Shown: in pieces, positions 10,785 to 33,798 of the stretch | Layout of the letters: each line of letters opens with the position of its first letter | Numbering within the stretch: position 1 is the first letter of the stretch | Source of the DNA: Cyanidioschyzon merolae | Taxonomy: Eukaryota | DNA: 64,000 bases | Assembly: GCA_000091205.1 (NCBI GenBank) | Contig: AP006494.2 | Reading direction: 5' to 3' (one strand) | The notes under the pieces: model-generated | What the model was told of the DNA's origin: nothing | The model's input: only the letters and a program-made list of their open reading frames with translations | Databases searched by the model: none | Translations under genes and position numbers: made by a program

Positions 10785-12080
10785 ATGGGACAATCCGAAC
10801 CGGAAGTCGAGCGAGATGCGAGTCTGCAGCGGCATGGCGCGCGCGCGCAGATGCGATCAGGAATTCGAAAGACGATGTCTGCGGCTTTTTCTTGGCGCTT
10901 TCCGCAGCGTGATCGAGAATTGACGTCCATGAACTCACAAGTAATGCACGGTACGAAAAGAGTTGGAGCTCCTCACGAAAATGGGTTCGAAGATATTGCA
11001 TTCGGAGAAACTTTCTCTCCTGAAATCAAAGAGAAAGGCGGCACGAGCGCAGTGATCGTCGGGCTTGACGGCAGCGAGCGTGGCGACACTAGGGTGCGTT
11101 CTCACGTACCTGCTATTTTTAAAGCGGAGGAAGCTGACCGTTATACGCTCTTCCCCATCAAGCATCCGAAGATTTTCGAATTTTATAAGAGGCACGTGGC
11201 ATCGTTTTGGACAGCAGAAGAGATTGATCTAGCGGCGGATATGGATCACTGGCGGAACCGTCTCACGGAGGCTGAGCGCTATTTCGTTTCACACGTGCTG
11301 GCGTTCTTTGCAGCTTCAGATGGAATCGTCCTTGAAAACCTCGCGGAGCGTTTCATGCGCGATGTTGAAATTCCTGAAGCTCGCTGCTTTTATGGATTTC
11401 AAATCGCTATGGAAAACATCCACTCGGAGACGTATAGTCTGCTCATCGATGCCTACGTGAAGGACCCAGAGGAGCGAACGCACCTCTTTCGTGCGATGGA
11501 GACGATGCCTTGCGTACGGCGCAAAGCATACTGGGCAATTCGGTGGATCGGCAGCGATGCTAGCTTCCAGGAGCGCCTGGTCGCCTTCGCGGCGGTGGAG
11601 GGTATCTTCTTCAGCGGTTCGTTCTGCGCCATCTTTTGGTTGAAGAAACGTGGACTGATGCCGGGTCTTACTTTTAGTAACGAACTCATCAGTCGCGACG
11701 AGGGTCTGCACTGTGATTTTGCTTGCCACCTCTACAGTATGCTGCCTGCAGAAGAGCGCGTCCCAGCGGAGCGTATCCACTCTATGATTCGAGACGCGGT
11801 CGAATGCGAGAAGGAATTCGTCTGCGACGCACTGCCAGTGAGCCTAATCGGCATGAATCAGCAACTGATGAGCGCATACATTGAGTTTGTCGCAGACCGC
11901 CTGCTGGTAGAGCTCGGATACGATCGTTTGTGGAACACACCCAACCCATTCGACTGGATGGAGCTTATCTCGCTCCAGGGAAAGACCAACTTTTTCGAAA
12001 AGAGAGTCGGTGAGTACCAGAAGGCCAACGTTACCACCAGCGCAACAGACAACGTCTTCGCGCTCGACATAGAATTTTGA
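10785..12080 (+). CDS. ribonucleotide reductase small subunit (R2, di-iron/tyrosyl radical)
   Basis: Near-collinear with eukaryotic RRM2 from [30 protein letters not shown] through [83 protein letters not shown], to the C-terminal NVFALDIEF. The maximal ORF starts with ATG at 10518. The first 90 residues are Arg-rich junk-like sequence. In-frame ATGs at 10785, 10851, 10875 and 10929 are more plausible starts; 10785 is chosen arbitrarily. Confidence 0.85.
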
Positions 12081-13653
12081 GCCCCACTGGTACCACATTC
12101 TAGAGGAAGCGCCCGTGAACCGATCTATCGAGCATTGACTCACCTACGAGCCTGCGATCGAGGCTTCGAACGGTACGACACTCGAGGGCGAACCATTCGA
12201 CTTTGGTCTGGTTCTATACTCGACGTTCGTTGTTGTAGAAACGGGCGGCGAACGCTCCTTCGCACCCAGAGCCCTTCTGAATGGTGCGTATCATGTACGA
12301 GATTTCGGATTTATGCGTCCATCTGCAAACATCTGCATCTTCTGTGCTACTCAGATAGAATCGACATCCAAGCGACACGCTTGTACCCCATGATAGGTGC
12401 AGTTCTCGAGCTAGCGACTGTTTCCAAAAATGAGTTCCGCTCCTCTGCCCAGCTTCTCGAGCTGTTGCCTCGTCCGTAAAACGCAGAATGAGTCAATGTT
12501 GCGTGTCCCCGAACGCATGTCACAATCGGCGTACGTCTGCGGAAACCAAGCACCCATGCAAGTCGGCAAGTTCCAAATATCGCTGCCGCCGCTGCGCGCA
12601 CCCGTTCGGGTGAGACTCGAAAAGCACGGAAACTCGTGTGCGGCTGAGAGGTTCGTTCCCTCGGTCAGCAGCGTCGTTTCTCCGCTGTGATGAGCGACGA
12701 AGCCGTCCCCCGATGAAGCGCTCTCAGAGAACCGCATGCCGCATATAGCGCCACATAGACGCGAAACCCACGGGAACGCCCCACGCTGGGCCCTGCGCAG
12801 TCGGCACTGTCGCGTGCGCAGCGCCGTTGCAGGCGCGAACGGAAGACTCGGCACGCACCGGGTCGCGTGAACGTACCGGTCGTGTTGAAGAAAAGTTCGG
12901 TATATGGGTAATAGATTAGCGCTCTGGAACGGAGTGGTGGTCGCTTCCCTGACTGCTGATCAATATCGCACGCCCGCAAGCTCCTTACCTATACTCTTCA
13001 TGCATTCCGCTGTTGAAATAATCGGCCTGTGGGATCAGCGGTGCGTCAAGCATCCAGCGCTGTAGTGAGCACGCACTCGCTATTGCCTGTTCATTCGTGC
13101 GCAGATCGGCAGCTTCGTGTTGCACTTGAAGGCTTCGGCGACTCGATGCGCTGCAACGCTGGATCGGAGGAACGCGTGCATGAATGTCGCTGCAGGAATC
13201 ATGCATACTGGACACTCCGGACATGCGGCAGTGTGTGCACGCGATCTTCCGATGCGCCAGCCAGCTACTGATCGCGCCTATAGCACGCGGACACGTATGC
13301 GCTAGCGTTCCGTGCAGAGCCATCCGTCCAGGCGCGCACGATCGCTATGCACCAATGAATGAGCGCTTTCTAACATTTCCGCACGCTCTGAACGTTTTTG
13401 TACAAGCGTTGGCGCGGGGACGGCTTATGCACTCGTTGAAGACCGGTCGCAATAGCACTGCGTTTCAAGAGGCGTGTCCACGGCCTGCGCAGCGAGAAGC
13501 TGCAGTTTGTTTGGTCAACAACTAGCACTCGCAGCGTGAGCCATTCAACGTGTACTGGCACCGAGCGAAAACGTCCACAACGATTGCAAAAGCTGCGTTA
13601 TATTTCACCCCTTGTCGAATGAGCGCAGTGTCGCAGTTTACGCTCCGTTTTCT

Positions 13654-14946
13654 ATGAGTGACACAATCCACCGGATAAAACACTTTTCTCGTGGCAGCCG
13701 TCGATGTTGCGTCGTGCTCCAGGATAAGAACGGGCCGTGTCCGCTGGTAGCACTGACGAACACCCTCCTTTTACGGGGAAGCCTGGCCCCTTTTCCTGCG
13801 GACATGGAGTACGTTTCGAGCGACTGGCTCTGCAACGTTCTCGCTGAATACCTTTTCGAAAAGCAAATACCGGCTTTGAGCGCGAACGCTGACCGGGTCG
13901 CTGACCTTGAATATGGCGTTGCGGACGTTGTCCAGCTTCTCCCGGTGCTTCAGCACGGCATGGATGTGAATGTCGGGTTCAGGGACTGCACGGATTACGA
14001 GCTAACTGCAGAGACGACCCTTTTTGACGTTTTTGGGGTCCTTCTGCTTCACGGATGGCTCGCTGACCCCTCGGACCAAGACGCCTACGAAGCGGTGTCA
14101 AGACGGCGCTATAACGCAGCGCTGGAAGTGCTCTTGCAGCACCCGACAGACGCGTTATCGCAGATGTGCTCGGAATCGGAGCCGGGAGCATCGGCAAACC
14201 TGGATGTGCTTCGCTCGTCGCCAGAAATTGCTTCGGCGCAAGTGCGAACCGAGATCTTCGCGAAAACTGCTCGCGCCGCAATATCCACAGATCGTGCCGC
14301 GGGAACACGTTCAACGGTCGAGAGCAATCCCTCTTGCCAGACGAGGCGCACTGCCGCAACGATGTCTCCAACTAAGGAGGCTCAAGAAGCTGAAGAATCC
14401 GAACGAGGAGCGGAAGCAGCTCATATACGCCGCTTCATAGAGAACTCGCCGACGCAGCTTACGTATCGGGGGTTGATTCGCCTGCATGAAATTCTGCGCG
14501 AGGGCGAGTATGCAGTGTTCTTCCGAAACAATCACTTTTCCACCATAACGAAGCACGACGGTGTCCTCTACGTGCTCGTGACCGACGAGGGCCTGGCCAT
14601 GACTCGAGGGGTGTTTTGGGAACGATTCGATGACCTGGATGGGGATACGGTGTTTGTCGATGAGAACTGGGAGCCGGCGAATGCAGCACGATGCATGCCA
14701 GACGCTCTCGAAAGCGCCTCAGCAGCGAACCGCTCTGCAGCGCATCGGACTCAGACCGGCCCTGTCGCAGGCGAGCGGTATGCAAAAGACCCAGCGATGC
14801 GTGCTTTTTCGCCGCCACGCCAGAAACCGGACGCCTCAGCGGGAACTTGGACGCCAAAAGCGCTAAAACCAACCTCACAGAAAAAGACAGCAGCTACAAC
14901 GTGTGCGGGTCAGTCGCCAAGGCACTCTCGGTGCAGCGTGCAATGA
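13654..14946 (+). CDS. MINDY-family (FAM63/DUF544) deubiquitinase
   Basis: The ORF-track start at 13612 is TTG; the first ATG is at 13654. Catalytic-Cys context QDKNGPCPLVALTNTLLL. Also present: GMDVNVGF, LLHGWLADP, PTQLTYRGLIRLHEILREGEYAVFFRNNHFSTITKHDGVLYVLVTDEG, VFWERFDDLDGDTVFVDENW. These are collinear with human MINDY1/2. Confidence 0.8.
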   Translation: MSDTIHRIKHFSRGSRRCCVVLQDKNGPCPLVALTNTLLLRGSLAPFPADMEYVSSDWLCNVLAEYLFEKQIPALSANADRVADLEYGVADVVQLLPVLQHGMDVNVGFRDCTDYELTAETTLFDVFGVLLLHGWLADPSDQDAYEAVSRRRYNAALEVLLQHPTDALSQMCSESEPGASANLDVLRSSPEIASAQVRTEIFAKTARAAISTDRAAGTRSTVESNPSCQTRRTAATMSPTKEAQEAEESERGAEAAHIRRFIENSPTQLTYRGLIRLHEILREGEYAVFFRNNHFSTITKHDGVLYVLVTDEGLAMTRGVFWERFDDLDGDTVFVDENWEPANAARCMPDALESASAANRSAAHRTQTGPVAGERYAKDPAMRAFSPPRQKPDASAGTWTPKALKPTSQKKTAATTCAGQSPRHSRCSVQ

Positions 14947-15482
14947 TTGTGCTGCAGAAAGGAGGGCATGCATACAAGTTTATGCTTTGCGCTGAGTCGA
15001 TGCAAGGTTGCTGGTTAGGCGCGTCGTGCCAGCATCCAGATACATTTGTTATCGAGAGCAGATGCTCTGGCGCAAGCCATGCACTGAAACGAAATCGTTG
15101 CCAAACCGTGATCTCCCGTGTGCGTCACCTGTTGTGGTGACACCGTCGGAAATGAGTGCAATCGCGTGAAACTCGTTTCTCTTTCAAGAACGGAATCGCG
15201 TGCCGTTTACGCAGCGCCCACGCGCCTCGCATGCAGCAGTTTCGTCGTCTCCAAAGCGATGGTGAGTCATGCATCACGCTTCACGCGGAATGCAACACAG
15301 CCTGAGCATAACTTGTACCCCGCTGTGGTGTGTCGTGCGCGAAACTGCCTTCACTCACTGACGTCGCGACGAGCAGTCCGTGGTGTGCGTACACGGATCA
15401 TGAGCAAGCCCCAGCTCAGAGTAAAATGGAACAGGTCCACTGAGCTAACTCGTGTATAGACGCTCAAGTTTGTGTCTATTTT

Positions 15483-16112
15483 CACTGCCATGAACACCAG
15501 CATCTGGAAACTATGTCCGCGACTGCTTCCTGTTCCTGTATTGCGCATCACCGGCTTTGACGACGCCGGTCGCGCCAGTCCGCCCGCCTCTATTCTCAAC
15601 AGTCGAAGGATGCTGAAAACAGCGTCCGCGTTCCGATTTCGCCGTTCACCGCTGCTTCCGGCACATCGCATACACACACAAATACGGAGATCTACGCTAG
15701 CCGTGTCATTTCCATCTTGGTTGCATACAGCCTCGGTACGCGCTTCACAGCGCCGACACCGCGCTGTGGTTACCTGCACTCATTCGTTCTCTGCACGTCG
15801 ACCTGCGTCGAAGACCACCCTGTGGCGCGTGAACGCTCGCTTCATCGCTCGGCACACGCCGCTCACGAGTGTAGAACGCTCAGCTCGATACACACCTCGA
15901 TAGCAGCGCCCAGAGCTGCACACACTACAAGTACAGGCCTCCTCTGGGCGATCTGCTACGTGCGTACTCTATCCGCTACAGGTGCAAGCGCACGGTGTTC
16001 GATTCGATAGACAATTCGTGTACTGCGATATTGTCCATGATCAAAGAGGTGATCGGAAATCCAGTCCAGACTGGAGAACAAGTCGACACGTTTCGATCGG
16101 TCTATAGTCCTT
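15483..16112. repeat. dispersed repeat family A, copy 1 (about 630 bp)
   Basis: About 98.6% identical to 27456..28085 in the same orientation (offset 11,973 bp). Identity starts at cactgccatgaacaccagcatctgg and ends at gatcggtctatagtcctt. No TIRs or TSDs seen. No recognisable coding content. Confidence 0.85.
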
Positions 16113-16254
16113 CTGTGGATCACGGTGACGGACGTTTCACTGGAATGAGTCGCAAGGATGGCTCACGTCCGAGCCCAGGGCCCTTTTTCCGCGCAAACGC
16201 ACGCGACGGGATCCTCGAGGGGGCAGCGTATCCCCCGGGAGCTACGAAGCTGCC

Positions 16255-16275
16255 GCTGCTGCTGCTGCTGCTGCT
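16255..16275. repeat. (GCT)7 trinucleotide microsatellite
   Basis: Direct read: gctgctgctgctgctgctgct. Confidence 0.85.
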
Positions 16276-16960
16276 TCCGCTTGCCGTTTCGTTGATGGTC
16301 ACATCAATCGGAGGATATGTCATTCGAGTGGACTCGATAATTTGGCGAGACGAGCATAGAGACCGTTCAGCATGAGCTTGTGAACGAGGCGCCAACGGAC
16401 GACGTCGATTTTTTGTTTCTGTCGTCCATCCAGCGGAACGATTTGCTGCACCCACAAGTTGCCTTGAAACCGAAATATCGAGAACCTGAAAAATGCGCCA
16501 TTTCAGCATGCCACATGCCAGCAAAGGGCGAAGCGTCTGTACTGGTACGTATGCATTTGATAATGATATCGTTTAGGTTACGAAGCGCTGTTCGAGTGCG
16601 TTGCGAAATCATCTCGATTCTGATGAAGTCGGGAATTCCAGTGGCAGAGACAAAACACAGTCATTTCGACGAGACGACCGAGACTCCTTCTAACACCTAT
16701 GAATCTATACGCCCTTAGCATTGCGTGTTGAATGCCGATGCCGAATGCCTCCAAAAAAAACACAGGTTCGGAAAAAGCGAAATCCAGAAAGAGCCTAACC
16801 ATTGCACTCTCCCATATCATCTGATGCTGGTGAAGACGCACTGGTGCGACGCCCAGCGCTCCCGCTCATCTCCATGACCGGTCATCCGCTGTGAAGTCAA
16901 TCTCGAATGCGGGTCCATTGCTGTCACCATATCCATTGTTTACAAACGATTATCAGAACC

Positions 16961-19900
16961 TTAAGACGAGATCGGTTCTTTGACATCTCGACTCGCGGCC
17001 GGTGCAACGCGACGCAGTTTATTGGCAGCACGTTCCATGCCTCGACGGATTTGCTCCGAGATCTCCTTGTACTTGGGATGGTACTCTTGGAGGGATTTCA
17101 CTTCCAGCGTCTGACTCTGCATGGTGCGAATTGCCGCAGCTGCCGCTCGTGCCGCTGCGATGGTTGTGATGATGGGTACCTTGGTCATCAGCGCCGCGCG
17201 ACGAACGTTCCGAGCAGAGTCCGCAGGCACCGACGGCGTGATGATGAACAGATCGATATCGCCGTTCTTGATGGCGTCGAGAACATCGGGACGCCCTTCG
17301 CCGGCCTTGTGAATCATCTCTACTCGAGCGTCATCGATACCAGCAGCGACTAGCGCAGCGTGTGTGCCTCGGGTGGCCAGAACTCGAAAGCCCATATCCA
17401 GCAAGTCGCGAACGAGCGCCGGAGCTGCTGCTTTGTCTGCGTCCTTCAACGATAGCAGCACCGTGCCAGACTTGGGTAGCGGCGTTCCGGCAGCAGCCTG
17501 GGACTTTGCATAAGCCGCTCCAAAAGAGTAGTCGGTGCCCATGACTTCACCAGTCGAGCGCATCTCTGGACTCAGAAGGGTATCGGCGCCAGCAAATTTG
17601 TCGAATGGTAGCACGCTCTCTTTCACAGATATCGCTCGCGGGAGAATCTCCGTCGTGTACCCGAGTTCGTCGAGGTTCGCACCCGCCATCAGCATACTGG
17701 CGATCTTGGCAATCGGTACGCCGATCGCTTTGCTCACGAAGGGTACGGTGCGCGAGGCCCGGGGATTCGCCTCCAAAATATAGACGTCGCTGCCCTGGAC
17801 TGCCCACTGGATATTGATCAAACCCACGACCTGGAGGCGACGAGCGAGCGCTGCAGTCCACTGACGAATCTGCACCAGCACCTCATACGGCAGGGACACG
17901 GTGGGTATGCTGCACGCGCTGTCCCCACTGTGGATTCCCGCCTGCTCAATGTGCTCCATGATACCGCCGATAACCACGCGTCCGGTGGAGTCTGCGAGCG
18001 CATCGACATCCACCTCTGTCGCATTAAGGAGGAATTTGTCGATCAGGACAGGATGCTCGGATTCCACGACGACCTCTTCGGCCATGTACCGTTCGAGCTC
18101 ACTTGCGGAATAAACGATCTCCATTCCTCGACCGCCGAGAACATAGGAAGGCCGCACCACAACCGGGTACCCGATTTCCTCAGCAACGCGCTTGGCATCC
18201 TGGTAGCTGCGGGCAATGCCATTCTCTGGCTGGCGAATGCGCAGCTCGCGCAGTATCGCCTGGAACCGATCCCGATCCTCGGCTGCGTCGATCGAGTCCG
18301 GACTGGTGCCCAGAACCCGCGTGTACACACCTGCAGCTTTCGCTTCGTCGCTGTTCAGGTATTCTTGCAGAGGAACAGCGAGCCTCAGTGGAGTCTGCCC
18401 GCCGAACGTAAGAATGATGCCATCCGGCTTCTCCGCTTCAAGGATCGAGATAACATCCTCCAGTGTGAGCGGCTCAAAGTAGAGGCGATCGCTGGTATCG
18501 TAGTCGGTCGATACGGTCTCGGGATTCGAGTTCACCATAATGGTTTCAAAACCTGCATCGCGGAGCGCAAAGCAAGCCTGACAACACACATAATCGAACT
18601 CGATGCCTTGCCCGATGCGATTCGGACCACCTCCGAGGATTATGATTTTCGGCTTGCTCGGGTCCGAGGGTGGAACCTCGGATTCCATCCCAGCAGCGAT
18701 AAAACTTCCATGGAAGCTGGATCCATCGCCTGTGGTGCCGTCGCTGCGCAGATCGAGGACACTGCCCCCGGTGGTACTGCCATCGCCATTGCCCCCGACA
18801 GCGTCATCGTCCCAGGCGTTGCAGGACTCGTACGTTGAGTACAGGTACGGCGTGTAGGCCTCAAACTCTGCACTGCAGGTATCGACCCGTTTGTAGACAG
18901 GGCGGATACCCAGAGATTTGCGATAGCGACGGACCTCAGTCTCTGTAACGCCCAGCTTGCGAAGTGCAAAGGCTATTTGTCGATCACTGAAGCCGTTCCG
19001 CTTCAACGTGAACATGGTGAGCCGATCGATATCTTGAAGCGATTTTTTGCTGCGCAGCGATTCGCCCAAATCAAAGAGTTCCTTCATGTTCTGCAGGAAC
19101 CAGTGATCGTAGCTGGAAAGCGCGTTGATCTCGTCTACGGTCATGCCAGCCTGGAAGGCCTGCCGAACTCGAAAGATGCGATTCGGCCGCGGTATGCGCA
19201 GCGCTGCCTCGAGCTCAGTTCGAGATAGAACCTCTTCGTCTTTGGCGTCAAGGCCCCAGCCGTGTCGCCCAATCTCGAGGGAGCGAAGACCTTTCTGAAA
19301 TGACTCCTTAAAGCTACGCCCGATCGACATGGCTTCCCCAACGGATTTCATCTGCGTTGTCAGGACGTCGCTCGTTCCGGGGAACTTTTCGAACGCAAAG
19401 CGCGGAAATTTGCACACTATATAATCCAGAGCTGGTTCAAAAGCTGCAACGGTGTCTCGCGTTATGTCATTTTTGATTTCCGGTAAAGAGAGGCCAGTTG
19501 CCAACTTTGCAGCGACCTTCGCAATCGGATACCCGGTTGCTTTGGATGCTAGGGCCGAGGAGCGGCTCACTCGAGGATTCATTTCGATCACGATTACATT
19601 CGTGGTACGCGGACAGACCGCAAACTGGATGTTGCTGCCGCCGGTCTCGACACCAATCTCGCGAATGATTGCGATTGACATGTCGCGCAGGCGCTGATAC
19701 TCCTTGTCGGTGAGCGTCATCGTTGGCGCCACCGTGAAGCTATCCCCCGTGTGAATACCCATGGGATCGACGTTCTCAATGCTGCAGATTATAACGACGT
19801 TATCCATCTTATCCCGAACAACTTCAAGCTCGAATTCTTTCCAACCCAAGAGAGACTGTTCGACTAATATCTGCGAGACGGGAGAGGCCTCGAGACCGCC

Positions 19901-20911
19901 AGCGGCAATTTCCTCGAACTCCTCGCGATTGTAGGCGATGCCACCGCCAGTGCCGCCCAGTGTGTACGCTGGTCGGATGATAAGCGGGAAACGACCTATC
20001 TGTGCAGCAACAGCCCTGGCCTCCTCCATGTTGTTTGCGATGCCACTGGGGCAGCACGGTACATCGATCCGTTCCATGGCTTCACGAAATGCTAAGCGAT
20101 CTTCGCCTTTCCGGATCGCCTCCAGATTCGCACCGATTAGACGCACATTGTACTTCTCGAGGATGCCTTTTTTGGCAAGTTGCATCGCCATATTGAGGCC
20201 GGTTTGGCCACCCATGGTTGGGAGAAGCACCTGCGGGCGCTCTCGCTCGATGATCATTTCCAAAGCCTCCACCGTGATCGGCTCGATGTAAGTTCGGTCA
20301 GCGGTTTCCGGATCAGTCATAATCGACGCCGGATTGCTGTTCACGAGCACAACTTCGTATCCAAGAGAACGCAGCGCCTTGCATGCTTGCGTCCCTGAGT
20401 AATCAAACTCGCATGCTTGCCCTATACGGATCGCTCCAGAACCAATGACAAGCACTTTGTCAAAGTCCCGTTCTCTGTCTTTCGGAGGGAGGACGTCCAA
20501 CCACGGCGGTGTTGGAGGTCCGACGTTCATCCAGCGTTTGTGACCATCGACACCCTCCATGCGCAACCCGTATGAACCAGTGGGACCGGCTCGTGAGCGT
20601 TTTTTGAATTGCGGCACCGGTGCAAACGTAGAGGCTCCGAAGAACAAGTTCTCGCCGCTGAAACTTGTAGCGCCCGGTGCTGCGACATAGAGGCGCCTTC
20701 CCCTTTGACCCGTGGGCCTCGCTTTTCTGGAAGCTGACCCGCATCGCCCGTGAGCCGTTGCGGCCCTTCTGTCTATGGATACGACACCGGTTTGGTGTTG
20801 CACAAAGGCCACCGACCGTTGCGAGGGAGACGCCCGCTTTCCATCCGCTTCTCCCGGAACAACGAACAAGAAGCGGTTCTTACGGGCACTGCTGCAGTTG
20901 ATCGTTTGCAT
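16961..20911 (-). CDS. carB: carbamoyl-phosphate synthase large subunit (CarB-type, duplicated ATP-grasp + MGS-like domain) with an N-terminal extension of about 140 aa
   Basis: ATG verified at 20911. The protein is collinear with E. coli CarB over its full length: [95 protein letters not shown], the second half [38 protein letters not shown], and an MGS-like C-terminus. The extension is consistent with organelle targeting. Confidence 0.9.
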
Positions 20912-22299
20912 CAGACCACAGATCGGAAACCAAACTCCTGAAGTACCGCTTCAGTCTGTCAGCGGCGAGTCTGAACGAACTGTTCTCAACAGAAGGTTTT
21001 CCATGACCAACGGTTGGCTGCGCGATGAGGCCACTGGCGTCTACCACAGCAGCGAGTCTCATTTGTCGCAATTGCGCCGTTGTGTTGCGAATGAAGTGCC
21101 GGACGATCTAGGGCGACGGCGGCGTTTCGGCAGCGTCGATACGCCCGTGGATGCCCAGCGCGCGCTCCAATGAGCTTTCGGATCTGCATGCGCTGTTTCT
21201 CGTTTTTCAATTCCATTGCGTTCCACCCGCCGGTGTGTGTTATCAGATGCTCTTTCGCTGTTTATAGCAAACGTGTTCGATGTTCGTTCATGTGAAGACC
21301 TAAAAAATCCAAGGGAAAACGATGGACATGAAAATCGGAGATCCTGGGACCCGGTCACGCCGGCTGCAGGAAAAACACGCAAAAATTCCTACGCTCGCCG
21401 ACTATCGAGCGATGCAACGGAAGAACAAGCAGAACGGAGATATGAGAGAAAAAGAGTTTGCCCGACGAGACGATTTGGAGGCAGTAGTGACAATGTGGGC
21501 ACGAGCTCTAGGAATCCTCGCGTTGGTGAGTGCAACCAGAGGCAATAGACGCATAGAGTTGGAAAGCGAGACCACAACCCCGCCATCAACACCGGACGAC
21601 GCGTGGTGCGGAAGAAAAGACCCGAGGAGCTGACGCGATCGAACCTCGTGGACAGCCTTTCAGGATCGAAGTATATAGGCCGAAACTGAAGCTTATAGCA
21701 GGCAGCCAGTCCGAAAAGTTAGGGAGGCGTCCACGAGAGGATGTACATATTTACCCTCTACGATCGTGAAACGTGATTCGTTTTAATGATCACATCTGTT
21801 GCTTGGGGTCAAGAATCCATTTTTTAGCGAAGACTTGTATCGTGTAAGCTATGCAGGAATACGTTTTCATAGAATTGTATGGAGCACGTTGACGACAACC
21901 GTTGTGCTGACCTGAGAGGGACGGAATTCGCGGAAAATGGCTTGGATTTTTATCCAGGTGTACTTACGATCCCCCGTCTGAGCGGATGGAACGTAGTTGA
22001 ACTGCTCAGCATTTGCGGGCGTACTTGCGCCGAGGGGGAGCTCCAATCCTACGCATCAATTCCATGTTAGACGAGTTGCAATATGCCGGCGGGTGAAGTT
22101 CTGACCCAGGACCATGAAATAAGCAAAGACTTGACAACAAGTGTCCATTCAAGCGATGACCAGGGAAGAGATCCGATTTCCTCCGTGGGCGCCAGTTCGA
22201 TCGAGGTTGTCGGAAACGTGCTTACCTGAACGAGGCCATGCGTCGGCCCCGTAACCAGGGCCAAAGCACGTCGTTTCAAGGCCTGCAGTGGAGAGCGCG

Positions 22300-22575
22300 C
22301 TCCGACCCCCGGTCTTCGGGACCGTCAGTCGTCGAAGCCGCCCCCGTCTTTTTCATGCAATGCTCCTGCATGGCTTTGATAGTGATGCAAGCTTGAAGCT
22401 CAGTGCGACGTCGAATGCCCCGACACGTCTGCTTTGCGCGAACCCCCGGTCTGCGGGAGCGGCAGTCGTCGAAGCCGCCCCCGTCTTTTTCATGCAATGC
22501 TCCTGCATGGCGTTGATAGTGATGCAAGCTTGAAGCTCAGTGCGACGTCGAATGCCCCGACACATCTACTTTGCA
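22300..22575. repeat. tandem duplication, 2 x ~138 bp (~90% identical)
   Basis: cccccggtctKcggg...gtcgtcgaagccgcccccgtctttttcatgcaatgctcctgcatggcKttgatagtgatgcaagcttgaagctcagtgcgacgtcgaatgccccgacac occurs twice head-to-tail. The ORF track shows a duplicated peptide, SRRSRPRLFHAMLLHG[FV]DSDASLKLSATSNAPT. Confidence 0.8.
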
Positions 22576-23783
22576 CGATCGAAAGTGCTGCGCTTCCCCG
22601 CAGCCGCTGCGCAGCGATGCGAAGCGGCACGTTGCATGCCTGGGTGCCGCCCGCGAGCCCCTTTCGGACCCATGGATCATTGGGCAGACTTGGATGCCCC
22701 CACATGCCGGATGCTTTCCGTCAGAACCCCGTACTCATACTGCAAGCGCGCCCGTGAGCCCGAACCTCGTGCAGCAGACGCTGTCGCCCATGTGCACCTA
22801 TTGGTGATGTGTCCGCGACAACAGCTAGGCTCGATGTCACCGCGGATGCAAGCTCGATGCTCGTCCGAATGCATTTCTGTTCCTGTGCGTATAGGGCTGG
22901 ATCACGTTCCGAATACATGGACGGGTGCCACAGACTGGAAAGCGTACTCTATTCAGGGCGATCTGTGCGCTATATTTTGAGTATGACGCACATCAGTCCC
23001 GGAGTCGTATGAAAAGCTCTAATGCGTTCGAAAACAGGCGGAAAAGGCTGATGGAAATCCGCCCGCGGACGCGATGCGCTCGGGCATTCGCCACAGAACA
23101 ATGCTTTCGCAACGGCGCCAACGTTTCACTGAGCACGACTCGAACGCAGAGCGTATATCGTAAAATTTCTTTGTCGCAAGCGCTGGCTTCGAGTAACGGA
23201 CCCTTGTCGACATCGAATACTCAGCTTTACGCTTCACGCTCTGTGCGATAGCAACTGAATGAATGTCCACCATTCGAAAACAAGCATGTCCAAACAGGCG
23301 TTTCCCGCACTCGTACATGAATGTGCAGCAACACAACAATGCAATCAGGTTCATGGAAGATATTCGCATCTACGCAAAAAGAATCATGTCTCGATCTGCA
23401 CCGCTGATCAGGTGCGACGATCGATACAAAGTGCGATCCGAGTACCCGGAATGCGTTCCGCGAGCCGGCGACCTTTGCAGCAATCCGGAAAAGCAACGAT
23501 CCTTGTCGGTCTGATGCTACGATCGATACAGAACGCGATTCGTGTATCAGAATCGCCATCTATGCATATGGCCCTGCGTGCGATCGAAAAACAAAGCAAC
23601 GATCAGCTTACGAGTCGCAGCCGGTATCACCTGAAACTCTGAGGCGCCGCCAGAGCTTGGCCACAGAACGTCGATTGCCCAATGCTGGAGATGCCGTCGA
23701 TGCTCGATCCCCAGAGGGCCGCACGCAACCGCTTTCAGCCAAGTCGTTCGACGAGCTCTGCCACAAGCAATCCGCCTCATGCG

Positions 23784-26264
23784 CTAGCGCGGCGCAGAAA
23801 CCCTGTCTTGTTCGATCCCAAAGATGGCTCGAATGCCTCGCAGCGTAGCGCGTTCCATCAGATTCGTGACAATGTCCATGAGCAAGCGCTTGCCCTCTCG
23901 TTTGGATCCAATCAATTGCAGAATGGGAAGGAATTTGCGACTGTCTACTGCATAGGGCAGGAGGAGCGATTGGATGCTCGGGGTCTCTGAGACACCGCGA
24001 ATGCTGCGTGCCAGAGCCGAATTCGCAAGCGCCAGCGAAAGCGCCTTTTGAAAATATATCATCGACTTGGTCGGTACCGGTCGTTTGCCTTGCAGTAACT
24101 GCGTGTTGTAGCTGACGGTGTCTAAAATAAGCTGATCAAACTCGTTGACCAGGTCTTCGGCCAAATGTCGACGGATAATATCACCGCGCGGACTCAGGAT
24201 GAATTCGAGAAGTTGGCTTGCAACAACGCTGAAGTCGTATTCAGAGGTCAGCGATGCTGAATCCAGCAGGCTCTCGAGGCGACTCCATCGAATACGGCCG
24301 TCCTTGAAAAGAAGCACGGACAGAGCGTTCTGAAGCTCTGGTGCGGGATCCGTCAGCAATCGCGATGCAATATACGGATACGCATTGTTGATGATCTTGA
24401 AATCTCGGCGGACTTGGATAGCGAGTCCCTCCAAAACGCCGAGGCAACGAATAATTGCTGTGTAATACGGAGGAAGGCGGAATGGAAACTTGTACATCAC
24501 TGAACCAAGCTTGTTGATTACCGACTTGAAGTTCAATTCGGATACCGAGGCATCCAGTACGTCCGGTAGAGCCCGATTCAGGGCAGCTACCAGTGGTGCA
24601 AGATCAGTATCAGGTGGAATGAAGCCTAATCTCACGTACAATCGGGCGAGTGATTCGAAATCTCGATTCACCATATGCATCACGGCCTCAATGATGCCAT
24701 AGCGTTGCGCTGGTTCTACTTCACTGACCATGCCAAAGTCAAGCCAGCACAGCTTGCCATCTCTCGTGGCGAGTAAATTACCCCCGTGCGGATCGGCGTG
24801 AAAGAAACCGTTCTCAAGCATCTGGCGCAGAGAACACTGAACCATGATCTCTACGAGTTTCTGCGCTTGGGCGTCGCTCAAACAGGGCGAGTTCAGGCGA
24901 ACTCCGTCCACCCAAGACAGGGTTACGACGCGGCGACGGGTGTACTGCCAGTAGATCTTGGGCACGACAACATCCGGGAGCGAGCCGTATAATTCCCGGA
25001 AACGTTCCGCATTCCGTGCTTCGTTCAGGTAATCGATCTCTTCGAAAATCAACTTGCCCAGTTCGTCGATGATGGAGACGAGATTGATATCTCGCCGCAG
25101 GAATGTCAGCATACGACTTAGGATGCCGCTCAATTCGCGGAGAATGTAGATATCCAGCGATATGATTTTCTCACAATCCGGTCTCTGGACTTTCACCGCA
25201 ACCGGCGTATCCTTTCCATCTCGTAGATATGCCTTGTACACCTGTCCTATGGATGCCGCAGCAACCGGTTCAGGTTCGATTCGAGAAAATATCTCATGAA
25301 CAGGTGCCTGCAACTCTTCCTCTATGATTCGATATGCATCCTCATTCTTGAAAGGTGGCAGGCGATCTTGCAACTTTTGCATCTCATCGAGATATTCGGG
25401 AGGCAGGAGATCGGGGCGGGACGCCAGCGCTTGTCCGGCCTTGATGAACGCAGGTCCCAAGTTTGAAAAAATCTGCAAAAATTCCGCAGCACGAATCTTT
25501 CTTCTCTCCTGCTCTTTTCCCATCTGGATGTCTAGAACCACTCGACCTATGAACACGAAAAGTGGTGCCGCGATTCGCGCCTGCCTTGTGCGGACAAGCA
25601 ACGTCTGCCGAGCATACTTCTCGCGCAACCGCTCTGGGTCGTATCGAACCGCAGGCGCCGCTGACTTGACGATGGTCTCGTAGTTCCAGGCGCTTGCGTC
25701 GTTCCCACGAGCGTCCATATGCATGCTGGCCCGCTCTTCGACACGTTTTATGATAGACCGTTCAAAATCCGCCGTCTGAAGAGGAGCCGCAACAGACGCC
25801 CTGCCTGTCAAGGCGGTGCTCGACTGTCTCGCGGTTTCACGCACGAGCTGGAGGGCACGCTGCGCCTCCAACAGGCGCCAGGAGCCAGTAGGCACCGTGT
25901 CTGCGTTGTGCTCGGGCACGTGGTTGGAGCTCGAACTGCCTGCACCTGGGGATGTGGGCCCTGCTACGCTCGCGCGTTCCGTTGCAATCATATACAGTCG
26001 ACGCGAATTGTAGACTCTTCGGTGACAGTTGCCTAGACCTGACTGACTGTACGGTCGCTCTTGATAAAGTCGACGTCCAAGCTCGCAATGCGCCCCAGGC
26101 GACGTTCCTGTCGGCAAAAATAGCCGCTGGATGCCGCTGAACTGGACGAAAAGCAGATAAAACCGACGCGAGTGACTACTCAGTGAACGAGTTGCATGCG
26201 CCATAGCACTGTCTTCACTGTTGAAACAAGGAAGCAACCGCTCGTGAGCCGAGTCAATCAACAT
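23784..26264 (-). CDS. ABC1/ADCK (UbiB-family) atypical protein kinase
   Basis: The ORF-track start at 26282 is GTG; the first ATG is at 26264. ABC1 motifs: AGQALASRPDLLPPEYLDEMQKLQD, AAASIGQVYKA, VAVKVQRPDCEKIISLDIYILR, HADPHGGNLLATRDGKLCWLDFGM. A long C-terminal extension resembles the plant plastoglobule ABC1K type. Confidence 0.85.
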   Translation of the reverse strand: MLIDSAHERLLPCFNSEDSAMAHATRSLSSHSRRFYLLFVQFSGIQRLFLPTGTSPGAHCELGRRLYQERPYSQSGLGNCHRRVYNSRRLYMIATERASVAGPTSPGAGSSSSNHVPEHNADTVPTGSWRLLEAQRALQLVRETARQSSTALTGRASVAAPLQTADFERSIIKRVEERASMHMDARGNDASAWNYETIVKSAAPAVRYDPERLREKYARQTLLVRTRQARIAAPLFVFIGRVVLDIQMGKEQERRKIRAAEFLQIFSNLGPAFIKAGQALASRPDLLPPEYLDEMQKLQDRLPPFKNEDAYRIIEEELQAPVHEIFSRIEPEPVAAASIGQVYKAYLRDGKDTPVAVKVQRPDCEKIISLDIYILRELSGILSRMLTFLRRDINLVSIIDELGKLIFEEIDYLNEARNAERFRELYGSLPDVVVPKIYWQYTRRRVVTLSWVDGVRLNSPCLSDAQAQKLVEIMVQCSLRQMLENGFFHADPHGGNLLATRDGKLCWLDFGMVSEVEPAQRYGIIEAVMHMVNRDFESLARLYVRLGFIPPDTDLAPLVAALNRALPDVLDASVSELNFKSVINKLGSVMYKFPFRLPPYYTAIIRCLGVLEGLAIQVRRDFKIINNAYPYIASRLLTDPAPELQNALSVLLFKDGRIRWSRLESLLDSASLTSEYDFSVVASQLLEFILSPRGDIIRRHLAEDLVNEFDQLILDTVSYNTQLLQGKRPVPTKSMIYFQKALSLALANSALARSIRGVSETPSIQSLLLPYAVDSRKFLPILQLIGSKREGKRLLMDIVTNLMERATLRGIRAIFGIEQDRVSAPR

Positions 26265-27455
26265 ATTGATCGACCTAGGCACTTACAAAGAGGCACAACC
26301 TGTCCGGTTTTAGCCAGGGTCTAGACCCCCCCAGCGCGAGTTCCTATTGTGCTCGAAGTGCGCTCCACAGCAGATATGCCACAAGCAGGTACGCTTTCTG
26401 AATACGGTCGCTGCGATGCCCTGCCGCGCGCTGCCCGCATGGATCACCTTTAGGAAACATCCGGATTCGCAGGTAGAGGCCTTGGGAAGCGTACCAGAAT
26501 ATGTAGCTTACTTTCCGATCTCGCTTTCATTTCATTTTGAATGTAGAATTGCAAGTACAGATTGCGGCCTTGATCTTTCCTAGTCTGCTGACATGACGTG
26601 GCCAAGGACGCATTAGAGAGAAGCTGGCAGAGGAAAATACAGAAAAGGCCTGGCGATCCAGGCTCGTGCAATATACTGATCTCTTGGTCGCACCGTACCG
26701 ACTCCACGAGCGCCGTACTCATCGAAGAAAGCGCTGCAGTCCCCAATGGGTACATTTCGGGTTGGTACAGGCCAGATGTTTCAGTGCTTCCGCAATCTTT
26801 CCACCCGCTGCATGCAATTGATATGGCAGAGACGCAGCTTCCGCTTCGATGTCGTGCGATTCCAGCATCCCGGAATAGACCTATACGAATGCAACGTTTA
26901 CGCATCAGACAAGGTTCCGTCAATGTATATTGAATACTTGCAACGACCAGAAATGCGTTCAACCTGCCATTGCACTGAGAAAGATCTGTGGAAACACAGC
27001 ATCCCCATTTTTTGACTGGATGCGGCAGCGGTCGTGCCTACAAGTTGGCGGCAGAAATCTCCTGAAACGTCTCCATGTAGCCAATGATGCGCCCATGGCT
27101 GGTTCTCCACGAACATCCGCAGTTCCCTGCACTCTGCTCATCATAGACTGCCATTCGGCCGAGTGACCCTTACAGAACCCATCTCGAAGCACCGCAGCTG
27201 CTCATGTAAAATAGGGAGTCTCATAGGCTGCCCGCTGTTTTACTGCATTTCCAAGACGACTCCCTAAACTGTGTAGCTCGTCGCCGTATCACTCCTGGTG
27301 CAGCATTGTCGCCAACGCGTGCACATTTTCTGGCACGAACTGCGTTGGCGTCGCTCCAGCGCTTACTGGAGATTCCGTTGCACCCATGTCCGACTAGAAA
27401 GAGACCGTTCCGAGCAGTATTCTCTGATGTAGACTCTAGACTTCAATTTTCTACT

Positions 27456-28085
27456 CACTGCCATGAACACCAGCATCTGGAAACTATGTCCGCGACTGCT
27501 TCCTGTTCCTGTATTGCGCATCACCGGCTTTGACGACGCCGGTCGCGCCAGTCCGCCCGCCTCTATTCTCAACAGTCGAAGGATGCTGAAAACAGCGTCC
27601 GCGCTCCGATTTCGCCGTTCACCGCTGCTTCCGGCACATCGCATACACACACAAATACGGAGATCTACGCTAGCCGTGTCATTTCCAGCTTGGTTGCATA
27701 CAGCCTCGGTACGCGCTTCACAGCGCCGACACCGCGCTGTGGTTCCCTGCACTCATTCGTTCTCTGCACGTCGACCTGCGTCGAAGACCACCCTGTGGCG
27801 CGTGAACGCTCGCTTCGTCGCTCGGCACACGCCGTTCACGAGTGTAGAATGCTCAGCTCGATACACACCTCGATATCAGCGCCCAGAGCTGCACACACTA
27901 CAAGTACAGGCCTCCTCTGGGCGATCTGCTACGTGCGTACTCTATCCGCTACAGGTGCAAGCGCACGGTGTTCGATTCGATAGACAATTCGTGTACTGCG
28001 ATATTGTCCATGATCAAAGAGGTGATCGGAAATCCAGTCCAGACTGGAGAACAAGTCGACACGTCTTGATCGGTCTATAGTCCTT
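27456..28085. repeat. dispersed repeat family A, copy 2
   Basis: See copy 1. This copy carries an uninterrupted 205-codon ORF (27463..28080). Copy 1 has a stop in that ORF. The ORF is Arg-rich and not protein-like. Confidence 0.85.
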
Positions 28086-28472
28086 TTCTCCCCTACCTCG
28101 CCTCTGACTCTTCTTCTTCTTCATTTGCTCCTCTTCGCTCGATGCTCGACGAGAGGAGGAATCTCTCGTCTTATTCCTGCCGCCGGCGATGGAGGCCCTC
28201 CAGGATGCTTGAGTTTTAGATCCATGCCTTTCACTTGGGTTTTCCATTTCTTCAAACGAACGCACTTCGAATGCATCTGCAATGAACCGCGAAAAGCCTG
28301 TCACACCGGTGTCGGGTACGCGCGAGATTCACCGCATCGCTAACCGAATCCGGCAAGCGAGCGCATCTTCATTTCGAGCACCGCTGAGGCCAGGCCTTGT
28401 AGAGCTCGAGTTCTGGGGCTGCGAACGCGTCGCTGGTGGGAAAGTCGCCACCAAGCAGGGCTGGTTGTGGCT

Positions 28473-31507: not shown

Positions 31508-33433
31508 CTAGCTCGAGACCTCCGCCGAGTCGCCACCGCTGAGCCAGCGCGTGTGCCACCGCCGCCCCGGATCGTCCAGACGCTCGTAGCCGTGCGAGCC
31601 GAAGCAATCCCGCTGGGCCTGAACCAGCTGGCTTGAGCGCAGCACCGCCTGTCGATACGTGTCGTAGTACGAAAGGCTCGCGGTCAGCGCCGGCGCCGGC
31701 ACACCCAGCGATGCCGCCAGCCCGACAACACGCCTCCAGCTCTCGTGGCGACGTCCAATCTCCGCAGCCAGGTCAGCGTCCAGCAGCAGATTCGGCAGGC
31801 TGGGGTCTCGTCGAAAAGCGCCCTCGATCCGCTCAAGCAGCTGTGCCCGAATAATGCAGCCGCCCTTCCAGATGCGCGCAAGCTCCCCGAGATCCAGCGA
31901 CCAGCCCTGCTCGCCGCTCGCTCGCTGCAGCAGACTGAGACCCTGCGCGTAGCTACAGAGCTTGCTGCAGAAGAGTGCGTCCTCAATAGCAGCGATCAAC
32001 GCTCGCTCCGCCGATGCATCCGAACGCGACGTCGACGCCGACGCTCGTACAGAGCCAGACGCTAGGGCGGCGACACGCTCGGGAGCTGTGTCCGGTCCAG
32101 TTTCAGCTACACCGCCAGCGGCTCCGGGTGAGGCACCGGCGGCCGCCAACTCGGAGGCGTGCCCCGTACCCGAGAGCCGCTCGGGTCCGCGGAGCACCCG
32201 CGACGCACGCTCGCGCTCGTCCTTCCGCGCTGAGAGGAAGCGCCCGTCGAGCGCGGCAGCGATGGTCGGCACCGCCACGCCCCGCCGCAGTGCCTCCGTC
32301 ATCGTCCACAGGCCAGTGCCCTTGCTCTCACTCCGGTCGAGGATTTGGTCTACGAGCGCTGGCGCCGACGCTGCCGACGAAGACGTGTCAGGCACGCGTA
32401 GAATGCGCGCGGTAATCTCCACGAGGAAGCTTTGCAGGGCGCCCGCGTTCCACGAGGCAAATACTTCCGCAGCCGCCATCGCATCCAAGCCAACGGCACC
32501 CCGAAGCAGGTCGTATGCCTCGCCGATCAGCTGCATATCGCCGTACTCGATCCCGTTGTGCACCATCTTCACATAGTTCCCCGAGCCGCCCGGCCCAATG
32601 TAGGTAACGCACGGCCCAGAGCCGGGCACCTGCGCCGCAACCTGCTCCAGCAGCGGCGCAAGCTGCTGGTACGCCTCCCGTGAACCGCCCGGCATCAGGG
32701 AAGGCCCGTAGCGCGCACCCTCCTCGCCACCGCTTACGCCCATGCCTACGTACAGGAGGCCGCGTGCCGCGACAGACGCAGCACGTCGCTCCGTATTCTC
32801 GTACCACTCGTTGCCGCCGTCCACGATGATGTCGCCCGGCTCCAGAACCTCAGCCAGCGCCTCGACGGTTGCGTCGACTGCGCTCCCCGCCTTCACCAGC
32901 AGGAATACCCGCCGCGGACGCTTCAGCGAAACCACAAACGACCGCAGGTCCGCAAAGCCGGTAACGCTCCCGCTGGCTGTCGTGTCATCTGCCGCGAGCT
33001 CCCGCTGCGCCCGCTCAACAGTCTCCGCCGTCCGCGCATACGTTCGATTGTACACAGAGACTCGCCAGCCGTGCGACGCTAGGTTCAGTGCAAAGTTCTG
33101 ACCCATGACCGCAAGGCCAATGACACCCGCGTCCGATATTGCGCGACCTGCAGGATGTGACGACGCGCTTTCCCGGACAGCACTCGACGGAGACGAGCCC
33201 TCCGCCGCAGACATGACGGCAGCACCACATGCTTGTGCGCGGCGGCCTCGGAGCAGGCACCAGCGAGCGCTTCGGACCAAGCTCAGGCTCCATGTCGGGT
33301 ACGTACGCCTGGGTGTCCAGGAGTGCGCACGCGGAGGCGCCCAGCGTCCGAAGCGCACCGCAGCGACAGGTGCGGCGGCCCAGCACAGCGCACCGCCACT
33401 GGGACTCCGGCGAGTGCCCGCTGTCGTCGCCAT
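31508..33433 (-). CDS. 6-phosphogluconate dehydrogenase (decarboxylating), with an N-terminal presequence and an Ala/Ser-rich insertion
   Basis: The ORF-track start at 33487 is GTG; ATG is at 33433. Motifs: IGLAVMGQNFALNLASHG, GGNEWYENT, GMGVSGGEEGARYGPSLMPGG, GSGNYVKMVHNGIEYGDMQLIGEAY, GTGLWT, WKGGCIIRA, DCFGSHGYERLD. Confidence 0.9.
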   Translation of the reverse strand: MATTAGTRRSPSGGALCWAAAPVAAVRFGRWAPPRAHSWTPRRTYPTWSLSLVRSARWCLLRGRRAQACGAAVMSAAEGSSPSSAVRESASSHPAGRAISDAGVIGLAVMGQNFALNLASHGWRVSVYNRTYARTAETVERAQRELAADDTTASGSVTGFADLRSFVVSLKRPRRVFLLVKAGSAVDATVEALAEVLEPGDIIVDGGNEWYENTERRAASVAARGLLYVGMGVSGGEEGARYGPSLMPGGSREAYQQLAPLLEQVAAQVPGSGPCVTYIGPGGSGNYVKMVHNGIEYGDMQLIGEAYDLLRGAVGLDAMAAAEVFASWNAGALQSFLVEITARILRVPDTSSSAASAPALVDQILDRSESKGTGLWTMTEALRRGVAVPTIAAALDGRFLSARKDERERASRVLRGPERLSGTGHASELAAAGASPGAAGGVAETGPDTAPERVAALASGSVRASASTSRSDASAERALIAAIEDALFCSKLCSYAQGLSLLQRASGEQGWSLDLGELARIWKGGCIIRAQLLERIEGAFRRDPSLPNLLLDADLAAEIGRRHESWRRVVGLAASLGVPAPALTASLSYYDTYRQAVLRSSQLVQAQRDCFGSHGYERLDDPGRRWHTRWLSGGDSAEVSS

Positions 33434-33777
33434 CCTTGAGGCGATCCACAGGTGGTTTGCGTGACCGAGGGCGGCCGGCCTGTTCACCGGGTGCGCCTCC
33501 TCGGTCTGCCGCGCTCTAGACGGGACAGCGCGCAGCGACTGGCCGTCTGGTGCTGCTTCCGGGACTCCTCAGCTGCCGATCCTGTGCCCCGGCGCGAGCA
33601 CTCGGCGACTTGACGTCTGGTGCTCGCTCAAGTCTCTCACGGTCACTACGACAACACGCACGCTCAAAAGCTGAGCACAGCGGAAAACAAAACCGATCCG
33701 CGATGCACGGGGGTGCTGCAGATCGATGCAGTCCGCGTCACGAGTTCTCGCAGTAGCACGAATACCACCGACAATAA

Positions 33778-33798
33778 CAGCAGCAGCAGCAGCAGCAA
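33778..33798. repeat. (CAG)n trinucleotide microsatellite
   Basis: Direct read: cagcagcagcagcagcagcag. Confidence 0.8.

Follow-up and report, generated by a model that had tools for sequence, protein, structure and literature searches.

Near-identical direct repeats on chromosome 12 of Cyanidioschyzon merolae: an old dispersed non-coding family and a probable case of non-allelic gene conversion

Cyanidioschyzon merolae serves as the 'simplest' genome of a free-living eukaryote, is a model for gene targeting, and is usually described as almost free of repeats. Analysis of a 64 kb stretch of its DNA (hereafter the window) revealed an old repeat family, two members of which, 12 kb apart, share a near-identical tract. 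Identity within the repeat unit steps from 53% to 98.6%, and the orthologous sites of relatives do not carry the family. We conclude that the pair is probably the relic of a mobile or dispersed element of no assigned class, on which non-allelic gene conversion between the two members has been superimposed; both the copying mechanism and the origin of the family from a mobile element are what we infer from this pattern.

The window is part of chromosome 12 of C. merolae 10D (loci CML05x-06x) and is identical to the finished genome, with four annotated proteins matching exactly. BLASTN, a repeat finder and MAFFT all retrieved the same pair of tracts, A1 (15482-16112, + strand) and A2 (27455-28085, + strand), which align in direct orientation over 631 bp with nine mismatches and no gaps (98.57% identity, BLASTN E = 0) and whose starts are 11,973 bp apart. 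The genes for MINDY (13654-14946, +) and CPSase (16961-20911, -) converge on A1, the putative conversion tract, with their 3′ ends facing it; an ORF, BAM80677, is presumably also annotated between these two genes. A2 occupies part of the 2.2 kb that separate the divergent genes ABC1K (CML057C) and UvrC (CML058C) and is some 390 bp upstream of the start of UvrC, so that the CPSase large chain gene and the ABC1 kinase gene (23784-26264, -) are enclosed by the two tracts. An earlier note on this DNA had proposed a direct pair of about 630 bp bracketing the CPSase/ABC1K block, with the second copy between the divergent ABC1K and UvrC genes, and the alignment and gene coordinates bear this out. The note had also considered that one copy might be an assembly artefact. 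Short-read assemblies do break at, or mis-join through, the repeat; but the source DNA is a finished, gap-free genome (PMC1955436), the nine differences are copy-specific in 10D, and all four repeat/unique junctions are reproduced in independent metagenome assemblies from several samples (contigs L001, L004, L014, L016, L017 and L020 together). No sign of an assembly artefact was seen, the junction-spanning contigs already refute this reading, and we give it practically no credence.

The A1/A2 pair is not a fresh 630 bp duplication. To the left of the tract, 15410-15481 and 27383-27454 match in register and without gaps at 38 of 72 positions (53% identity), compared to 18 ± 3.8 for random pairs (P = 1.2e-6; 38 matches were reached by one in 20,000 random pairs). 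Further left, and immediately to the right of the tract, the identity of A1 and A2 is that of background. Within the unit the change is abrupt, from 12 of 24 matches in 15458-15481 to 622 of 631 from 15482 on. The left limit of the 72 bp stretch is also the left limit of the family, as set by a third member in the window (A3), by the arms of a palindrome at 1574-1786 and by two copies from a related lineage (e1 and e2). The old, apparently unconverted 5′ end of A1 (15402-15481, +), where matches to the family HMM begin at 15402, shows homology to the same end of A3 and of the related-lineage copies, as well as to the arms of the palindrome. That of A2 (27378-27454, +; HMM alignment beginning at 27378) is by itself only marginally similar to other members: its 72 bp gave no match at E ≤ 10 to an HMM built without A2, and a shuffle test against A3 was marginal (10/500). 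Its homology was settled by the in-register test, not by the HMM or the shuffles. The real unit is about 705-720 bp long, and since homology continues through the 72 bp on the left, a unit was already present at the target site. The gradual decay of similarity leftwards, and the suspicion in the earlier note that the true unit was slightly larger and older, are thus both confirmed.

The third member, A3 (62821-63519, +; nhmmer E = 3e-35 to A1, about 55% identity), is colinear with A1 across the whole unit and has the same left and right limits. The palindrome at 1574-1786 (core 1629-1731) is built from the initial 100 bp or so of the unit, present twice in inverted orientation: HMM positions 7-103 match 1574-1674 on the + strand (E = 7e-9) and 1786-1681 on the - strand (E = 2e-5), and BLAST gave a self-palindrome there with 98% identity over 104 bp. 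Pairwise identities among independent members are 53-58%, with about equal distances, and only A1 and A2 reach 94% over the unit. Copy 1 also has a right-hand extension (16113-16826, +), absent from A2 and A3, which makes up a long form of about 1.4 kb in total (A1-long): nhmmer homology to the related-lineage contigs L018 and L019 (E = 1.7e-46 and 8e-17), and to L022 (2120-3461), runs past 16112 to about 16826. The 1.4 kb form is found in that Cyanidioschyzon-like lineage too, at non-syntenic sites. The copies in this lineage, e1 (L018, L019, L022 and L023) and e2 (L022, 2793-3461), adjoin ANAPC2 and abhydrolase genes and a homologue of window positions 44007-44425, and are therefore syntenic with no copy in the window. 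The orthologous syntenic intergenic regions of Cyanidiococcus yangmingshanensis and of a related metagenome lineage (L002 and L003) gave no match to the family HMM, and these regions are shorter.

The family HMM matched four places in the 64 kb, only two of them similar to each other, and a metagenome scan for the core pattern gave, in 10D-like populations, no site beyond the three already known; copy number is judged from this one pattern scan, one protein search and the window. Members were placed between genes, which agrees with the proposed low-copy element family favouring intergenic regions, and neither the window nor the pattern scan gave the many copies with defined transposon termini that would mark an ordinary element. 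A literature search found no paper on this repeat family, and the locus names CML053-058 are not used in main texts. A second near-identical pair (family B, 45194-46344 and 55029-56179) had also been reported and was recovered here as 1151 bp at 98.3% identity, likewise with one decaying edge. A fragment of a further family, C (28052-28348, -; nhmmer E = 5e-21 to 21177-21477, inverted), abuts the right end of A2, and other C fragments lie at 38163-38406, 40290-40463 and 44947-45155. In L022, as at A2, an A element adjoins a C fragment, and their relative orientation is the same in the two places. The description of the region as repeat-poor does not hold for old repeats, as at least three decayed families fill the intergenic spaces of the window.

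These data suggest the following history. The Cyanidioschyzon lineage has an old dispersed family, non-coding and low in copy number, with a unit of about 0.7 kb and a long form of 1.4 kb, which is most likely the decayed remains of a mobile element. The MINDY/CPSase and ABC1K/UvrC sites would both already have carried a unit. Non-allelic gene conversion (templated repair of the homologous-recombination type) may then have transferred the 631 bp tract, from about unit position 80 to the right end, from one of the units to the other across 12 kb of the same chromosome. This could have been one recent event. Alternatively, conversion may have recurred and so maintained identity in the core, with the left edge escaping it and diverging. 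At an identity of only about 55%, recombination is normally suppressed, and a single conversion of units that had already diverged would thus require priming of the microhomology type; concerted evolution over the long term, with erosion of the edge, would need frequent conversion over a long time. C. merolae does repair and target DNA by homologous recombination, and introduced DNA has been seen to convert a chromosomal allele (PMC3764038). The 'local duplication mechanism' of the earlier note does not fit, as both sites appear to have held units of about 55% identity before 631 bp were overwritten. It is possible that A1 and A2 are instead a younger full-length duplicate, and that a third copy, at another place in the genome, later overwrote the 72 bp edge of one of them. 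Such overwriting would still be conversion, in another direction. At sites 27944 and 28030 the two copies read A/A in 10D and G/G in L004, whose copies are identical, a state that an assembler could create. The identity of the L004 copies and mosaic haplotypes were rejected as proof of concerted evolution, because an assembler may traverse one repeat node twice.

Recent insertion of a discrete 631 bp non-autonomous element of MITE-like or SINE-like kind, or a one-off ectopic duplication into a naive site, would account for the sharp tract ends, the high identity and the intergenic sites. The related copies at non-syntenic sites elsewhere, and the breaking of that lineage's contigs inside the element, as expected of a repeat, also point this way, as do possible 6 bp flanking repeats at A1 (GGATCA) and A3 (GCTTGC). 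These repeats are, however, in register at the left end only, with the right end out of register, and none was found at A2; by estimate about 0.2 per copy (~20%) are expected by chance, and they are not significant. No terminal inverted repeat is common to A1 (TGAGCAAG.../...CTTCTGT), A2 and A3 (AGGACGAT.../...GAAGC). ARAGORN found no tRNA in the window, there is no tRNA-like head, Rfam gave no match in 15300-17000 even at E ≤ 1, and the right end of the unit reads ...GGTCTATAGTCCTT, with no A-rich or simple-repeat tail. The 72 bp in-register homology left of the tract (P ~1e-6) places a unit at the target beforehand, and the pattern scan gave no more than the three sites in 10D-like populations. 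Recent insertion is accordingly unlikely. A tRNA-derived element was rejected on the ARAGORN result, and a solo LTR because the termini are not TG...CA and LTR retrotransposons were not found in C. merolae (Nozaki et al. 2007, PMC1955436). The same study described an interspersed repeat of 253 copies, with a mean of 3.2 kb, on all chromosomes and amounting to about 5% of the genome, which carries a truncated ORF weakly similar to wsv486 of WSSV (PMC1955436). The A family could be a part of this repeat, and this would be compatible with the conversion model. Such elements occur on all chromosomes (PMC1955436), several old families lie in the intergenic regions of the window, and the abutting A and C fragments at A2 and in L022 suggest a composite of at least 2 kb. 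But none of the ORFs in A, A-long or the neighbouring C fragments matched Pfam or resembled any database entry, and the four HMM places in 64 kb and three metagenome sites for the core pattern are few for such a repeat. We regard the assignment as doubtful, though less so than recent insertion; a search for literature on the wsv486 repeats found scarcely anything.

A lineage-specific protein, the repeat being a duplicated real gene, was considered for the 205-codon frame (27463-28080, +) that is open in A2 and nearly fills the tract, with its ATG 8 nt after the start and its stop 5 nt before the end. It is predicted by metagenome gene callers, and the 215-216-codon open frames of A2 and A3 are unusual when compared to dinucleotide shuffles (P = 0.005 and 0.0075). 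The frame was nevertheless judged non-coding. The 215-codon frame of A3 is in a different register, and the open frames of A2, A3 and e1/e2 all differ in register with unrelated translations, while tblastx between members gave weak matches in several frames and on both strands, as expected of DNA-level similarity. The distribution of substitutions over codon positions is flat (chi-square p = 0.6 and 0.5). Variants in the frame comprise 11 non-synonymous changes, one of them nonsense (Y138*, present in three of eight full-length sequences), versus two synonymous ones. A search of 5.8 billion proteins returned one near-identical metagenome cluster only, the protein is absent among the 10D proteins in the collection searched, and no ORF of A2, of A3 or of a related-lineage copy matched Pfam. 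The earlier note was right that the frame is lost in copy 1, where Y138* breaks it, and that this Arg-rich frame is probably not coding; a real gene is very hard to credit. A functional non-coding element under selection, either a long or structured RNA or a regulatory module, is slightly less improbable, yet still very unlikely. Short blocks, e.g. TCCGCTNCANGNGCAAGCGCACG, are common to all members and the related-lineage copies, although four-fold sites are saturated (31% identity) between 10D and a related lineage other than that of L018/L022. Against this, segregating sites are more frequent in the units (1.7-2.3%) than in other intergenic DNA (0.9%) or coding sequence (0.5%), and one difference falls within the 'core'. 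Rfam gave no match at the gathering threshold or at E ≤ 1, and folding energies are unremarkable (MFE z-scores -1.8, 0.5 and 0.0). Gene context is also inconsistent across copies (3′-3′, 5′-5′ and 3′-adjacent). The family looks non-coding and unconstrained, and nothing suggests a function for the A1/A2 pair.

Crossing-over between A1 and A2 would be expected to yield two reciprocal products, and exactly these are present in four metagenome assemblies. The deletion type, a MINDY-repeat-UvrC join without the 12 kb, is found in L014, L017 and L020; the circle type is L016, a circularly permuted 12 kb contig with one repeat, CPSase and ABC1K, and a 333 bp overlap of its ends. These could be loop artefacts of the assembler, and we think it most unlikely that A1/A2 is an active recombination substrate in nature. 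If the products were real molecules, a deletion of two housekeeping genes, or their excision as a circle, would be present in wild Cyanidioschyzon populations. As a direct repeat, the pair could in principle mediate the loss of the 12 kb CPSase/ABC1K segment by deletion or excision. Gene-targeting work may be affected, since homology arms designed in the CML053-CML058 region could be misdirected by A1/A2. The repeats also break or mis-join short-read assemblies, and they lead metagenome gene callers to predict 205-aa 'hypothetical proteins' that are spurious. No new biological mechanism is indicated; what the pair documents is a small, unannotated, old repeat family in C. merolae, and two intergenic sites, separated by 12 kb, that bear what appears to be the clear footprint of ectopic copying of sequence from one to the other.

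Among known systems, the A family resembles MITEs and SINEs in its size (0.6-0.7 kb), in being non-coding and intergenic, and in its presence or absence at different loci between related lineages, but it differs from them in having few copies and no TIRs, Pol III head, tail or convincing target-site duplication. With the wsv486-like repeat, compared here by description only, it shares the genome, the interspersed and intergenic distribution, an old and degenerate state and a position outside known transposon classes, whereas its unit is 0.7-1.4 kb, its copy number apparently low and an ORF not recognisable. Interlocus gene conversion of low-copy repeats is the third comparison. A1/A2 is unlike it in comprising only two copies, non-coding and under no detectable selection, and in a background divergence of about 45%, far above the usual limit for homologous recombination; but the likeness extends to paralogous units 12 kb apart on one chromosome, a near-identical tract that is set within far older homology and sharply bounded inside the unit, and a host with active homologous recombination.

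The two near-identical tracts of repeat family A, A1 (15482-16112) and A2 (27455-28085), are in direct orientation 11,973 bp apart, and give a gapless 631-bp alignment that contains 9 mismatches (98.57% identity, E = 0). They bracket the genes for the large chain of carbamoyl-phosphate synthase (CPSase; 16961-20911, minus strand) and ABC1 kinase (ABC1K; 23784-26264, minus strand); A1 is located between the convergent 3′ ends of the MINDY deubiquitinase and CPSase genes, and A2 in the 2.2-kb divergent ABC1K/UvrC spacer. The position, orientation, identity and housekeeping neighbours described in the earlier note were confirmed. Translations of MINDY, CPSase, ABC1K and UvrC were identical to C. 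merolae 10D proteins (BAM80676, BAM80678, BAM80680 and BAM80681, respectively), UvrC is CML058C (GO table, supplement of PMC5405695), and CYME_CML063C and CML064C are neighbouring genes. Since protein identities and locus names match, the window is chromosome 12 of 10D, whose genome is finished and gap-free (PMC1955436). Contigs L001 and L005-L013, from 99.5%-identical metagenome populations, end within the repeat and others read through; taken together, independent metagenome assemblies recovered each of the four repeat/unique junctions, with L004 running across A1 as well as A2. With these junctions and the finished 10D genome, an assembly artefact for one copy was ruled out. The CPSase-ABC1K spacer also contains a 137-bp unit duplicated in tandem at 95% identity (22305-22578), which is present in L001 and L016 too.

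A1 and A2 are identical in L004 and other contigs carry mosaic haplotypes, neither of which is trustworthy as copy-specific, because a de Bruijn assembler passes one repeat node twice. In L014, L017 and L020, MINDY, the repeat and UvrC are joined without the 12 kb between them (7867-16112 joined to 27455 onwards), and L016 is a circularly permuted 12-kb contig of the repeat and 16113-27454. These are the reciprocal products expected of crossing-over between A1 and A2, and might represent a real deletion and 12-kb circle, a reading that we do not favour. The four contigs are very probably assembler artefacts, as the same repeat-graph structure explains them and as a cell with one genome copy would probably not tolerate losing CPSase.

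Comparison with other members of the family shows that the A unit extends beyond the 631-bp tract and greatly predates it; the earlier note had suspected a slightly larger and older unit from the fading similarity at its left. A diverged member, A3 (62821-63519), is colinear with the entire unit (nhmmer E 3e-35, about 55% identity), and a palindrome at 1574-1786, with a near-perfect core of 104 bp (1629-1731), consists of two inverted copies of its first ~100 bp; the palindrome separates two divergently transcribed genes, Fcf1 (791-1465, minus strand) and one that is epimerase-like (2095-3402, plus strand). A3 and the palindrome copies set the left limit of the family at 15402-15410 in A1 and 27378-27383 in A2, which is 72-80 bp left of the near-identical tract. 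Over this 72-bp edge, A1 and A2 are identical at 38 of 72 positions, in register and without gaps, compared with 18 ± 3.8 matches for random 72-mers from the window; as many as 38 matches came up in 1 of 20,000 random draws (binomial P 1.2e-6). Leftward beyond the edge, and directly right of the tract, identity does not exceed background. Independent members are 53-58% similar pairwise in a star-like pattern, and inside one homologous unit A1/A2 identity steps from about 53% to 98.6%. Taken alone, the A2 left edge has only marginal similarity to other members; the case for copying is carried by the in-register match and by the edge coinciding with the limit of the family. At A1, homology to elements of a related lineage extends past 16112 to about 16826, giving a form of about 1.4 kb overall.

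A 205-codon open frame (ORF205, 27463-28080) fills the A2 tract, and the doubt cast by the earlier note on this Arg-rich frame as coding was justified. ORF205 and a 215-codon frame in A3 are longer than dinucleotide shuffles predict (P 0.005 and 0.0075, respectively). The two are in different registers with unrelated translations, related-lineage copies are open in still other registers, and no three-base periodicity of substitutions was found among A members. Eight full-length tract sequences from 10D and metagenomes contain 14 variable nucleotide sites, with 11 amino-acid changes versus 2 synonymous in the ORF205 frame; the changes include a nonsense allele, Y138*, in three of the eight, which agrees with the earlier observation that the frame is open in A2 and lost in the other copy. 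Among 5.8 billion proteins, the sole match was a near-identical metagenome cluster; the 10D proteins in the collection searched do not include the sequence, and the consecutive locus numbers of ABC1K and UvrC indicate that no gene is annotated at A2. Pfam and Rfam searches, permissive thresholds included, gave no match to the family, and the A units had no excess RNA folding energy. When 10D is compared with the wild populations that are 99.5% identical to it, segregating sites amount to 1.7-2.3% in A units and 0.9-1.7% in A3, versus 0.9% in other intergenic DNA and 0.5% in coding DNA. Given the differing registers, the nonsense allele and the lack of homologues and Pfam domains, ORF205 was rejected as a real gene. 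The A family is non-coding and shows no constraint, and a functional RNA or regulatory role is unlikely in view of the Rfam and folding results and of polymorphism above that of other intergenic DNA. As accession BAM80677 falls between those of MINDY and CPSase, whose spacer is 14947-16960, 10D probably has a hypothetical CDS annotated inside the region of the long A1 form; none of the ATG-started ORFs tried there matched BAM80677.

A metagenome scan for the conserved core of the A unit located elements of a related Cyanidioschyzon-like lineage in L018, L019, L022 and L023. At least two long copies are on L022 (2120-3461, minus strand; 10580 to contig end, plus strand), and two assemblies of this lineage end within an A element. 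Its copies adjoin ANAPC2, an abhydrolase gene and, in L018, the homologue of window 44007-44425, and with these different neighbours are non-syntenic with every window copy. The region 44007-44425 itself has a non-coding appearance, is 71.6% identical to L018 3-500, the level of coding DNA between these lineages, and has no Rfam match; an RNA gene that escaped annotation, or a regulatory region, may lie here. In Cyanidiococcus yangmingshanensis (L002) and another related lineage (L003), no A-family member occurs in the MINDY-CPSase or the ABC1K-UvrC spacer, both syntenic with those of 10D and both shorter. Presence and absence at differing loci in each lineage, and star-like similarity of 53-58% against saturated four-fold sites (31% identity between lineages), point to a family that was once mobile. 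No terminal inverted repeats were found at A copies, nor a tRNA-like head, nor a tail, in the elements, and candidate target-site duplications were 6-mers only, with a chance expectation that we estimate at about 1 in 5; by termini, head or tail we could not place the element in a recognised class. The family is old, decayed and non-coding, and appears to be low-copy. That it forms part of the 253-copy 'wsv486-like' repeat known from C. merolae (PMC1955436) is rather unlikely.

Fragments of a third old repeat family, C, about 70% identical, are located at 21176-21731, 28052-28348, 38163-38406, 40142-40463, 41163-41263 and 44947-45185, the first of which contains CML056C (21322-21633), annotated as a 103-aa hypothetical protein. 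At A2 and in L022 alike, an A element has a C fragment adjoining its right end, with the two oriented to each other in the same way, and this repeated adjacency hints that A and C are parts of a larger composite element. Elsewhere in the window, a stand-alone 5S rRNA gene (34044-34164, plus strand; Rfam, 94 bits) lies between the 6-phosphogluconate dehydrogenase and SWIRM genes and is 88% conserved at the syntenic position in Cyanidiococcus. The gene for 6-phosphogluconate dehydrogenase, a protein whose Pfam domains are split by an insert, lies with its 5′ part under a local G+C peak (66.8% at 32001-34000, versus about 55% elsewhere).

The identity step is best read, from these alignments, as the footprint of copying between two pre-existing paralogues; the fresh arrival of a 631-bp insert at a site without a unit does not fit, since the left 72 bp were already homologous in register. 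We propose that sequence was copied between two old A units 12 kb apart, by non-allelic gene conversion or by templated repair of a double-strand break. This could have been a single recent event, which would have to be primed by short conserved blocks because 55% identity is insufficient for ordinary homologous recombination. Alternatively, the core may have undergone long-term concerted evolution while the left edge escaped and diverged, or the edge of a younger full-length duplicate may since have been replaced from a third copy at another site. The tract has diverged by 1.4%, about as much as A3 has between strains, which would make the last homogenisation of A1 and A2 roughly as old as the sampled strains.

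The second, unrelated near-identical pair that had been noticed nearby is also real: the family B copies (45194-46344 and 55029-56179) share 1151 bp with 19 mismatches (98.3%), each followed 200-400 bp downstream by a gene on the plus strand (ATE1 at 46554 and a TAF8-like gene at 56574), and a diverged, inverted B fragment is located at 5812-5952. Their left edge is sharp and the right one decays: the final 40 bp include 8 mismatches, and the next ~100 bp have 40-50% in-register identity. One sharp and one decaying edge, as in A, suggest the same copying process for B.

In C. merolae, DNA is integrated and repaired by homologous recombination, and a chromosomal allele has been converted by introduced DNA (PMC3764038). 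We conclude that the near-identity of A1 and A2 reflects homogenisation of two units that belong to an old family, a phenomenon that is well known as such, while the A family itself is apparently undescribed.
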